A program made the position numbers. From Escherichia coli (lineage in GTDB: Bacteria; Pseudomonadota; Gammaproteobacteria; Enterobacterales; Enterobacteriaceae), in the NCBI RefSeq assembly GCF_003334335.1, contig NZ_QOWQ01000008.1: a stretch of 64,000 nt of DNA. One strand, written 5' to 3'. Position 1 is the stretch's first letter, and every line of letters starts with the position of its first letter. This document shows positions 12,001-15,000 of the stretch, in pieces.

Positions 12001-15000
12001 CCAGCAGTTCGTCCACCTTTTTACGTGTGCCGCCGTTGCTGCTTATACTGCGTCGAACTTTGACGACATGCAATTTTGCGCGCTGATACCACTCACGCGT
12101 TAACATCGTATCGTGATTGGAGATCAGCACTGGAATATGGCGCTCAACCAGACCTTCGGCGATCTCCGCCAGATGCGCTTGTTGTTCAAGCGTAAAACTG
12201 TTTGTGTGATACGCCGTAAAGTTGGCGGTCGCAGACAGCGGTGCATAAGGCGGATCGCAATAGACGACGGATGCATCATCTGCGCGCGCCATGCTATCGG
12301 CGTAAGACTCACAATAGAAAAAGGCATTCTGCGCTTTTTCAGCGAAGTGATACAACTCTGCTTCCGGGAAATAGGGTTTTTTGTAGCGGCCGAACGGCAC
12401 GTTAAACTCACCGCGCAGATTGTAACGACACAGGCCGTTGTAACCGTAGCGGTTCAAATATAAAAACAGTACCGCCCGACGGAACGGATCCTGGCTTTTG
12501 TTGAACTCTTCGCGGAACTGATAGTAAACCTCGGCGCAATTTGTTTCGGGAACAAACAGCTCGCGTGCGGCCTGTACGTACTCATCAGTACGCATCTTCA
12601 CAATGTTATAGAGACTGATCAGGTCGCTATTGATATCGGCAAGGATATAACGAGAAAAGTCGGTGTTGAGAAACACCGACCCGGCACCTACAAAAGGCTC
12701 AACCAGACATTCGCCCTTGGGCAAATGCCGTTTAATATCATCAAGCAGGGGATACTTGCCCCCTGCCCACTTCAAAAAAGCGCGATTTTTCTTCATGCTG
12801 ACTAACTAATTACACCTTCTCCGGCTGTGGAGAAAGCTCCGACAGCATCCAGCGCTTCAGGCAACTCCCGCAACGATAAACCATTGCGGGAGATAACCTT
12901 GATTACTTCAGATCGGCCTGTACCTGACGCAGCGGTTTCGCCCACGGGTTTTTGGCCTGGACATCTGCTGGCAATGTAGATACCGCTTTTTTCGCCTCTT
13001 CTTTCGAAGCGTACACGCCAGAAACCAGGACATACCACGGCTGACCATTACGCGTCGTTTCATAGACAACGTAGTTTTTCAGATTCTCTTTCTTCGCCCA
13101 ACCGTTCAGGTTGTCGTAGTTAGAGGAACTGCTCAGCTGCAGAGTGTAATGGCTGGACGGTGCCGATTTCAACGAACCAACATTACCTGCGGTCTTCGCC
13201 CCAGCAGCGGGTGTTGCCGTGGTTTGCGCCGGGGATGCCGTCTGTACTGGAGCCGTAGTCGCCGTCTCTTTTGGTGCTGGCGTAGAAGTCGCAGCCGGTG
13301 CCTTCGTGCTCGCCACAGGGGCAGCTGGTTCAGTACGCTTCGGCGTCTGTGCTACCGGCTTCGGCTCCGTTTTCACGGTTGCTTGCGGTTTTTTCGGTTC
13401 AATCACCGCCTGCTGACGAGCTGGGCGCGTAGTGGACGGACGTTCAGCGGTTTGCGTTTTCGCCGTGTCACGCGATGCATTGCCATTGCGAACAGGCGCA
13501 ACCGTTGCGGGTTCAGTCGGCAACGTGGAATTGACCGCCACATTGTTCAGCTGTTGCTGATTTTGTGGCTGGGTCAGCGCATTGTTCAGGTCACCCTGCA
13601 CTTCAACACGTTGTTGACCATCCGTTGCCACCGGGGTTTGCCCTTGAGTCGGCGTAGAAGAGATCGGTGGCAGAGAAACATCCTGCTGAGTATTTTCCGC
13701 AGACGTGGTTCCCGGCGCTGGCTGCACGCCATTCGCCTGATCGGTCGCATTGCCAGCAAGATCAATACTCTTCTCGCCAGACGCGGTTTGATCGCTGGAA
13801 GTGGTCGAGGGGGCTTTTAGCGCAGAACCGATACCGATGATCAACAGCAGTAGAACCAGAATGCCGACGCCCATCATCATATACTGACGAGAAGCGGGTT
13901 TACTGGCTGCTTTTTTGCGCTTACGCGGACGACGCTCTACGCGCTCTTCATCCACGGTTTCATCTTCGGATTCGTCAATTTCTTCTTCGATTTCCGGTTC
14001 CTCATTGCGCTCTTTTTGCGCACGAGTCGGACGGCGATCGTCAGTGTCATCAAGTTCAATATCATCAAAATTGATCTGCGGTTCGCCACGTTCAGTACGC
14101 TCAGAACGTTCAGAAGATTGACGAGAACGACCAGTACGACGATCGCTGGGATCGGGTTTCAGCTCGTCTTCTGGTTTGAATTCATCCATTTAACACCCCA
14201 CTAAAAGGTTAATGCTTACCACGTTGCAATTAACCTGAAGCTAATAGACCGCTTGATAAGCGGCCTGACCTTTCTTGTTGTTACGCTGATTGACAATCGG
14301 CAATGGCGTTAAGAACAAGCTCGTGCGAAACGACGCTGCGAACTTCACTCTTACCAATTGCCAACGGAAGAATTAAGCGCATCTCTCCCGCAAGGACTTT
14401 CTTGTCACGCAGCATATGCGGTAAATACGCCTGCGCGGACATTTCGCGCGGCCCATTGACCGGTAACCCAGCCCGCTTGAGCAGGGTTATAATACGCTGC
14501 GTTTCGGCAGAACTAAACTGCCCGAGACGTTCCGACGTCCGCGCCGCCATCACCATACCCGCAGCGACCGCTTCACCATGTAACCAATTGCCATACCCCA
14601 TTTCAGCTTCAATGGCATGACCAAAGGTGTGTCCCAGATTCAGTAAAGCACGTAACCCGGTTTCGCGCTCGTCGGCGGCGACAACTTCTGCCTTCAGTTC
14701 ACAACAACGGCGAATACAGTACGCCATTGCCGGACCGTCCAGACGCAACAACGCATCCAGATTCTCTTCCAGCCAGTTAAAAAACGCACCGTCAAGAATA
14801 ATGCCGTATTTGATGACTTCTGCCAGCCCCGACGCTAACTCACGCGGGGGAAGCGTTTTCAGACAGTCGAGATCCACCACCACTGAAGCAGGTTGGTAGA
14901 ACGCGCCAATCATGTTTTTACCGAGGGGATGGTTGACCGCAGTTTTGCCGCCAACGGAGGAATCGACCTGCGACAGTAACGTCGTCGGGACTTGAATGAA

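Follow-up and report, generated by a model that had tools for sequence, protein, structure and literature searches.

The damX gene at positions 12903..14189 of a 64,000-nucleotide stretch of Escherichia coli DNA (contig NZ_QOWQ01000008.1 of RefSeq assembly GCF_003334335.1, hereafter the window) is best read as encoding a bitopic inner-membrane protein of the divisome, in which a disordered periplasmic tether leads to a SPOR domain and both the reach of this linker and a set of conserved motifs in its membrane-proximal half would matter; the long open reading frame (ORF) that lies antisense to the gene is best read as no gene at all. We put the probability of this reading at about 0.93. The damX gene, the domain plan of its product and the unstructured nature of its linker are already published, and the linker has been described as "mostly unstructured". 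Among inner-membrane SPOR proteins, DamX has been singled out as having "the largest periplasmic linker" (PMC7642682). No statement on DamX domains is found in PMC11054660, and terms for linker, disorder and domains are absent from PMC9233674.

Previous reports place DamX at the division site, where it interacts with itself, FtsQ and FtsN, and show that its overproduction blocks division and leads to filamentation (PMC4981707). DamX also interacts with PBP1B and stimulates the glycosyltransferase activity of this enzyme (PMC7642682). The SPOR domain binds the denuded glycans of septal peptidoglycan, and Q351, S354 and W416 are among the residues involved (PMC6895207). Strong anchoring to denuded glycans is required for DamX function, which suggests a tether between the peptidoglycan and the inner membrane. 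We propose that a disordered, charged cytoplasmic region (residues 1-99) is followed by one transmembrane helix (residues 101-123), and that a disordered periplasmic linker of 213 residues, rich in Q, T, P and A and free of aromatic residues, would tether the SPOR domain (residues 338-428). Binding of this domain to "denuded" septal glycan strands would concentrate DamX at the constriction site, and there the protein would interact with FtsQ, FtsN and itself and stimulate PBP1B. The distal half of the linker would act as a flexible tether that sets the reach, with length rather than sequence being maintained, and the four motifs of the proximal half are likely docking sites, as judged from their conservation.

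Gene identity and predicted domain plan

Several independent matches identify the gene as E. coli damX in a chromosomal window, as the first-pass annotation had proposed. The ORF is 100% identical in DNA to the annotated damX of NZ_CP025903.1 (E. coli strain 300709), and its allele differs by 0-5% from most other E. coli alleles. A full-length damX at 95% identity or higher occurs exactly once in 5426 of 5426 complete E. coli genomes, and the RefSeq label "cell division protein DamX" is found in all of them. The NCBIfam equivalog model for DamX, NF008153, is matched at 848.8 bits (curated cut-off 256 bits) by residues 1-428 over profile positions 1-424 of 424, and PDB entry 2LFV, the DamX SPOR domain, matches residues 335-428 (E=1.4e-55). 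The gene order hofQ-aroK-aroB-damX-dam-rpe-gph-trpS, obtained from the ORFs of the window and from the RefSeq annotation of the identical allele, agrees with this assignment, and the segment aroK-aroB-damX-dam-rpe-gph is also syntenic in two distant orthologous loci (L083 and L084). Compared with DamX of E. coli K-12 (NF008153, PDB 2LFV), the window protein has the same length of 428 residues, the same domain order and the same gene neighbourhood; the two are essentially the same protein, and there is no difference of substance between them.

The features of the protein, from its N-terminus to its C-terminus, are as follows.

12903..14189, minus strand: damX coding sequence, 428 codons with a TAA stop at 12903-12905 (ORF list, allele match and NCBIfam match).
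14118..14189, minus strand: conserved N-terminal cytoplasmic peptide of 24 residues, residues 1-24 (alignment occupancy and conservation in 58 representatives).
13914..14105, minus strand: charged cytoplasmic insertion, residues 29-92, which holds the acidic run (alignment occupancy and model confidence).
13944-14000, minus strand: acidic run of 19 residues, residues 64-82 (translation).
13908..13934, minus strand: juxtamembrane basic patch RRPRKRKKA, residues 86-94, on the N-terminal side of the transmembrane helix (translation).
13821..13889, minus strand: predicted single transmembrane helix, residues 101-123 (Kyte-Doolittle hydropathy and AlphaFold2).
13485..13817, minus strand: membrane-proximal half of the linker, residues 125-235, predicted to be disordered, with four motifs (conservation and model confidence).
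13179..13484, minus strand: distal half of the linker, residues 236-337, a hypervariable, indel-prone spacer rich in P, A, T and K (entropy, identity and deletions).
12906..13178, minus strand: SPOR domain, residues 338-428 (Pfam, PDB 2LFV, AlphaFold2 and Foldseek).

Two sets of homologues were used: 78 Enterobacteriaceae species with a complete damX (79 sequences with the window itself), and 58 DamX representatives of clusters at 50% identity, the alignment of which also served as input for an AlphaFold2 model. Confident structure, with a predicted local distance difference test score (pLDDT) above 89, was obtained only for the transmembrane helix and the SPOR domain. Elsewhere (residues 1-100 and 124-336) the block pLDDT was 41-58, and DSSP assigned no element except a helical turn of three residues at 14-16. 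The linker is thus predicted to behave as intrinsically disordered, in agreement with the earlier description of a long, low-complexity disordered region, for which a disorder check had been suggested.

The C-terminal domain is the best-defined part of the protein. The first-pass annotation had called it SPOR-like, and Pfam SPOR (PF05036) indeed matches residues 345-418 (E=3.7e-14; model positions 2-75 of 76). In the model it reaches a pLDDT of 95-97 and shows the beta-alpha-beta-beta-alpha-beta order of a ribonucleoprotein-like fold, with strands at 348-355, 373-380, 383-393 and 416-419 and helices at 358-367 and 396-404. A Foldseek search with the model returned 2LFV (E=1.3e-13), CwlC (1X60), DedD (6ZTG) and the SPOR domain of RlpA (6I05), the last with a target-normalised TM-score of 0.70 and a root-mean-square (rms) deviation of 2.7. 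The three glycan-binding residues named above are all present, and Q351 and W416 are invariant in the 58 homologues.

The model and the composition of the protein predict a bitopic topology, with a cytoplasmic N-terminus, one transmembrane helix, a periplasmic linker and, at the C-terminus, a SPOR domain. The single membrane-spanning segment that had been noted earlier is borne out by hydropathy, since DamX has only one hydrophobic segment (19-residue Kyte-Doolittle maximum of 2.66 at residues 106-124), and by the AlphaFold2 helix at 101-123, which has a pLDDT of 89-92 and is conserved in all homologues. The basic patch, also seen earlier and now located at residues 86-94, points to a cytoplasmic N-terminus by the positive-inside rule.

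On the cytoplasmic side, residues 1-99 consist to 58% of D, E, K and R and carry a net charge of -11, compared with at most 34% of these residues in the other long ORFs of the window. An acidic N-terminus had been described for this protein; the acidic run does exist, but it occupies the central part of the cytoplasmic region and not the very N-terminus. What stands at the very N-terminus is the conserved peptide (occupancy of about 1.0 and a mean top-residue fraction of 0.64-0.72 over residues 1-24), in which M1, D13, D16 and R17 reach a conservation of 90% or more among the representatives. The length of the cytoplasmic region is bimodal, being 30-45 residues in 45 of the 58 representatives and 73-99 residues in the other 13, and in the short forms it consists of a conserved peptide of 18 residues followed by juxtamembrane basic residues. 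Only 13-22% of the sequences in alignment A2 carry residues 29-92, which have a pLDDT of 43-49 and no predicted secondary structure. By this alignment the acidic patch is part of a lineage-specific insertion of approximately residues 29-92. A Shigella sonnei protein (P0014) naturally lacks residues 60-81, that is, the acidic run.

The periplasmic linker and its two halves

The linker comprises 213 residues (125-337), or 221 if counted to the start of the Pfam SPOR match. It had been described as some 250 residues rich in Q, T, P and A; the composition holds (55% Q+T+P+A), but the length was overestimated. The maximum in windows of 213 residues from 39 other long ORFs of the window is 34%. The linker contains no aromatic residue, the residues I, L, M, V, F, W and Y together make up 11% of it, and the lowest 60-residue entropy in DamX is 2.84 bits, compared with a background minimum of 3.28 bits in the other long ORFs of the window.

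A comparison of linker lengths across Enterobacteriaceae had been suggested. In the 78 species, DamX measures 420-454 residues and its linker 213-243 residues (median 223), E. coli being at the minimum; Q+T+P+A amounts to 48-60%, and there is at most one aromatic residue. Among the 58 representatives the linker ranges from 134 to 263 residues, with a median of 183. The radius of gyration of an unfolded chain of N residues scales approximately as 0.254 x N^0.522 nm. For linkers of 134-263 residues this scaling gives an rms end-to-end distance of about 8-11 nm, a reach that would be in keeping with a tether between the inner membrane and the peptidoglycan layer.

The distal half holds the entropy minimum of the protein. 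Its identity between E. coli and other genera is 47-65%, as against 84-95% in the SPOR domain, and length and composition are held while the sequence drifts. Its indel hot-spot is at residues 289-329 (13203-13325), where proteins of 389-407 residues from E. coli, Shigella and E. albertii have lost 21-39 residues in frame, and where other Escherichia species have an insertion of four residues.

The proximal half (pLDDT 44-58) contains four motifs that are conserved in order, each approximated below by a pattern in which x is any residue.

13758-13772, minus strand: motif 1, K-x-I-x-L, residues 140-144 (conservation).
13644-13670, minus strand: motif 2, P-x-I-S-x-T-P-T-Q, residues 174-182 (conservation).
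13575-13616, minus strand: motif 3, Q-x-R-x-E-L-x-G-D-x-x-x-A-L, residues 192-205 (conservation).
13503-13523, minus strand: motif 4, L-P-T-x-P-A-T, residues 223-229 (conservation).

Each pattern occurs in 26-40 of the 58 linkers and in at most 5 of 1160 shuffled linkers. Single columns are kept at L144 (49 of 58), P180 (50), R194 (42), G199 (47), L205 (48) and P224 (51). No description of the four motifs was found in the DamX literature that was searched. From these patterns of conservation we tentatively suggest, at somewhat less than even odds, that the linker motifs, together with the N-terminal peptide of 24 residues, are docking motifs for PBP1B/PBP1A, FtsQ or FtsN. DamX would then be a disordered scaffold that spans the cytoplasm, the membrane and the cell wall, and the distal half of its linker would only set the reach.

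The reading that competes most seriously with this suggestion, and one to which we would give roughly a third of our credence, is that the linker serves solely as a passive entropic spacer, in which length and composition alone matter and the motifs are residual similarity. The hypervariable and indel-prone distal half with its conserved composition fits such a spacer, as does the tolerance of natural E. coli strains for deletions of 21-39 residues. The model predicts no part of the linker to form secondary structure, and the linker of the paralogue DedD is featureless and disordered by nuclear magnetic resonance (NMR; PMC7642682). A purely passive spacer does not, however, readily account for four ordered motifs that persist in representatives only 32-58% identical to the query, nor for the retention of single columns in 42-51 of 58 sequences, a level similar to that of columns in the SPOR domain and the transmembrane helix. 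The rarity of the motif patterns in shuffled linkers likewise speaks against residual similarity.

It is improbable that the low-complexity region was born and is kept by expansion and contraction of DNA repeats through slippage. The in-frame indels among E. coli strains do concentrate at residues 289-329, and Pro-Ala-Ala occurs twice in that region (residues 298-300 and 327-329), although the codons of the two copies share only a short and imperfect identity. Tandem Repeats Finder, however, reported no tandem repeat in the linker DNA, its only hit in the gene being an array of 3.1 copies of 9 bp at 14088-14115 that encodes SERSERTER in the N-terminal region. A search of the damX coding DNA for direct repeats gave only pairs of 10-16 nt at chance level, and the low entropy of the protein derives from composition and not from periodicity.

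Among other SPOR proteins of E. coli, DedD (PDB 6ZTG) likewise combines a transmembrane helix, a disordered linker and a SPOR domain and stimulates PBP1B (PMC7642682), and its SPOR domain is a structural neighbour of the DamX model in the Foldseek search. The DedD linker, disordered by NMR over residues 36-141, has about half the length of the DamX linker, and DedD is almost devoid of a cytoplasmic region (PMC7642682). FtsN, which is essential, differs in that its periplasmic essential (E) domain activates FtsWI and DamX has no recognised equivalent, similarity of the motifs to the E domain not having been compared; the SPOR domains of FtsN and DamX are less than 20% identical (PMC4981707).

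The antisense frame at 13149..13820

Opposite the linker and the start of the SPOR-coding region lies one further long ORF.

13149..13820, plus strand: antisense ORF of 223 codons with an ATG start, 25.6% Arg, judged non-coding (ORF list).

The first-pass annotation had drawn attention to this Arg-rich frame and had regarded it as an artefact of GC-skewed, repetitive coding DNA. The ORF was found as described, with 57 Arg residues, and on sequence evidence we agree that it is an artefact and not a gene; the cause, however, is a different one. The GC skew of the coding strand of the linker is only -0.07, inside the range of -0.16 to +0.14 of the other ORFs, and the repeat searches given above leave nothing in the linker that could be called repetitive. 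The bias consists instead of C at codon position 2 (51%) and a depletion of T (15% overall), with an AT skew of +0.29 (maximum of 0.20 in other ORFs).

Bacterial genes tend to have long open frames in their codon-register antisense frame, and the present ORF falls in this class. It stands in exact codon register, its base 13149 being paired with a third codon position of damX. Since each of its codons is the reverse complement of one damX codon, antisense stops can arise only from TTA, CTA and TCA in the sense strand, and the frame is wide open because damX is almost devoid of these codons. There are only two, CTA at codons 113 and 124, and it is codon 124 that terminates the antisense ORF. 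All 57 Arg residues are reverse complements of sense ACG (16), GCG (15), CCG (14), TCT (6), TCG (4) and CCT (2). When codons were shuffled synonymously, antisense ORFs of at least 223 residues arose in 43% of shuffles with damX's own codons and in 10% with the codon usage of the window, and the length of the ORF is not beyond what the codon content of damX leads one to expect.

That 13149..13820 is a genuine overlapping gene, translated into a basic protein, seems to us very nearly untenable, even though the ORF is long, starts with ATG, is open in the allele of the window and has counterparts of at least 200 residues in 22 of the 79 aligned sequences. Its length is reached by a sizeable share of the synonymous shuffles, and the range is free of stops in only 6 of 79 sequences. 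In the other 73 it is interrupted at scattered, non-conserved positions, including those of one E. coli genome (L001, codon 345) and of E. albertii (codon 214). The overlapped damX codons show no drop in synonymous variation: 4-fold sites diverge by 0.56-0.71 in the linker and by 0.56-0.67 in the SPOR domain, and the normalised synonymous entropy of the linker, 0.68-0.78, is the highest in the gene. No constraint is seen on the bases that would serve as first positions of antisense codons. The ORF has no NCBIfam match, is absent from a collection of 15 billion proteins and is unannotated in RefSeq. A scan for promoters and terminators found no promoter-like site on the plus strand near 13149 (the total of sites was not above that in shuffled sequence), and the sequence upstream of the start contains no convincing Shine-Dalgarno element. 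In the accessible part of the report of a genome-wide translational-fusion screen, the only candidate mentioned within damX is a nested ORF of the same sense (PMC12350097). The ORF thus resembles spurious codon-register antisense ORFs in its register, in the source of its stops and in the way its Arg residues mirror NCG and TCT sense codons, and at the level of sequence it lacks the conservation, synonymous constraint and expression signals of validated antisense overlapping genes.

Some points count against our overall interpretation and should be kept in view. The docking function proposed for the four proximal motifs is putative. Disorder in DamX is predicted, the direct NMR evidence being that for its paralogue DedD, and the cytoplasmic domain has been guessed to be "likely folded" (PMC7642682), a guess that the AlphaFold2 model and the composition, as predictions, do not support. 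Occasional pervasive antisense translation may also take place at 13149..13820.

The 5' block and smaller features of the locus

The stretch that begins 25 nt upstream of the damX start codon and reaches codon 22 (14125-14214, minus strand) is nearly invariant in nucleotides across the 78 species, even at third positions. The normalised synonymous entropy falls to 0.14 in codons 1-15 and to 0.33 in codons 16-30, compared with about 0.65 elsewhere. Weaker dips are seen at the 5' ends of other genes of the same loci, namely aroB (0.32 and 0.43), dam (0.40 and 0.68) and rpe (0.38 and 0.71). Folding of the block as RNA indicated no special structure (z=0.14). Three orthologues that are more distant do show variation at its synonymous sites.

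Within this block, two GATC (Dam) sites 9 bp apart, at 14150-14153 and 14141-14144 (codons 13 and 16), are kept in 78 of 78 species, and they sit, curiously, in the gene just upstream of dam. About 5 GATC sites would be expected in damX, which has 10; the remaining eight are kept in 11-48 of the 78 species. The two conserved sites lie inside the invariant block, and their conservation may not be specific. None of the three distant orthologues retains the first site; L082 and L084 still have the second, which L083 has lost.

Among the smaller ORFs, one of 50 codons with a GTG start (13937-14089, minus strand, in the +1 frame within damX; product ending in KPWMKSA) corresponds to the nested "in-damX" candidate of the PIRT-Seq screen, as matched through the tagging primers given in the accessible part of the report, where it is recorded as seen in only one replicate (PMC12350097). 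The damX codons under this ORF show ordinary synonymous variation (0.67). We attribute the openness of the frame in 72 of the 78 species to composition, the acidic region having few T at codon position 2. Selection on in-damX finds no support, and the candidate, being of the same sense as damX, is distinct from the antisense ORF. A further ORF of 78 codons with a GTG start (12802-13038, minus strand) extends, in another frame, from the 3' end of damX into the damX-dam spacer; it is probably due to chance. In the SPOR-coding part, a sigma-70-like arrangement of TTGAAA, an 18-nt spacer and TACACT (13143-13172, minus strand) agrees with the consensus at 9 of 12 positions and points towards dam, with a number of matches not above that in shuffled sequence.

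Weaker family matches of DamX were judged compositional, both for NCBIfam OapA (E=0.0017; 17.8 bits, with the cut-off at 400) and for Pfam PBP1_TM, DUF7336 and Piezo (E of 0.03 or more). A search of 11000-16500 against Rfam at E of 1 or below gave no match. One DamX cluster at NCBI (P0021; 350 residues, 890 member sequences) aligns with no more than 82% of the query, with an identity of 98%; this short form may stem from the calling of another, internal start or from truncation at the 5' end in many deposited genomes. In Citrobacter amalonaticus AUH_CA_2023_1 (locus L046, from 2501 onward) damX stops after 89 codons and tblastn nevertheless matches all 428 residues; a frameshift or an error in the assembly probably accounts for the interruption.

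In conclusion, these results carry little weight as discovery, and their main value is the negative evidence on the antisense ORF at 13149..13820, which should stay unannotated. The combination of register frame, count of TTA, CTA and TCA codons and a test for synonymous constraint can be reused to dismiss Arg-rich antisense ORFs opposite linkers rich in Ala, Thr, Pro and Ser. For the biology of DamX itself, the linker length of 213-243 residues, the four motifs and the lineage-specific acidic insertion are modest additions, which would provide specialists with targets for mutagenesis.

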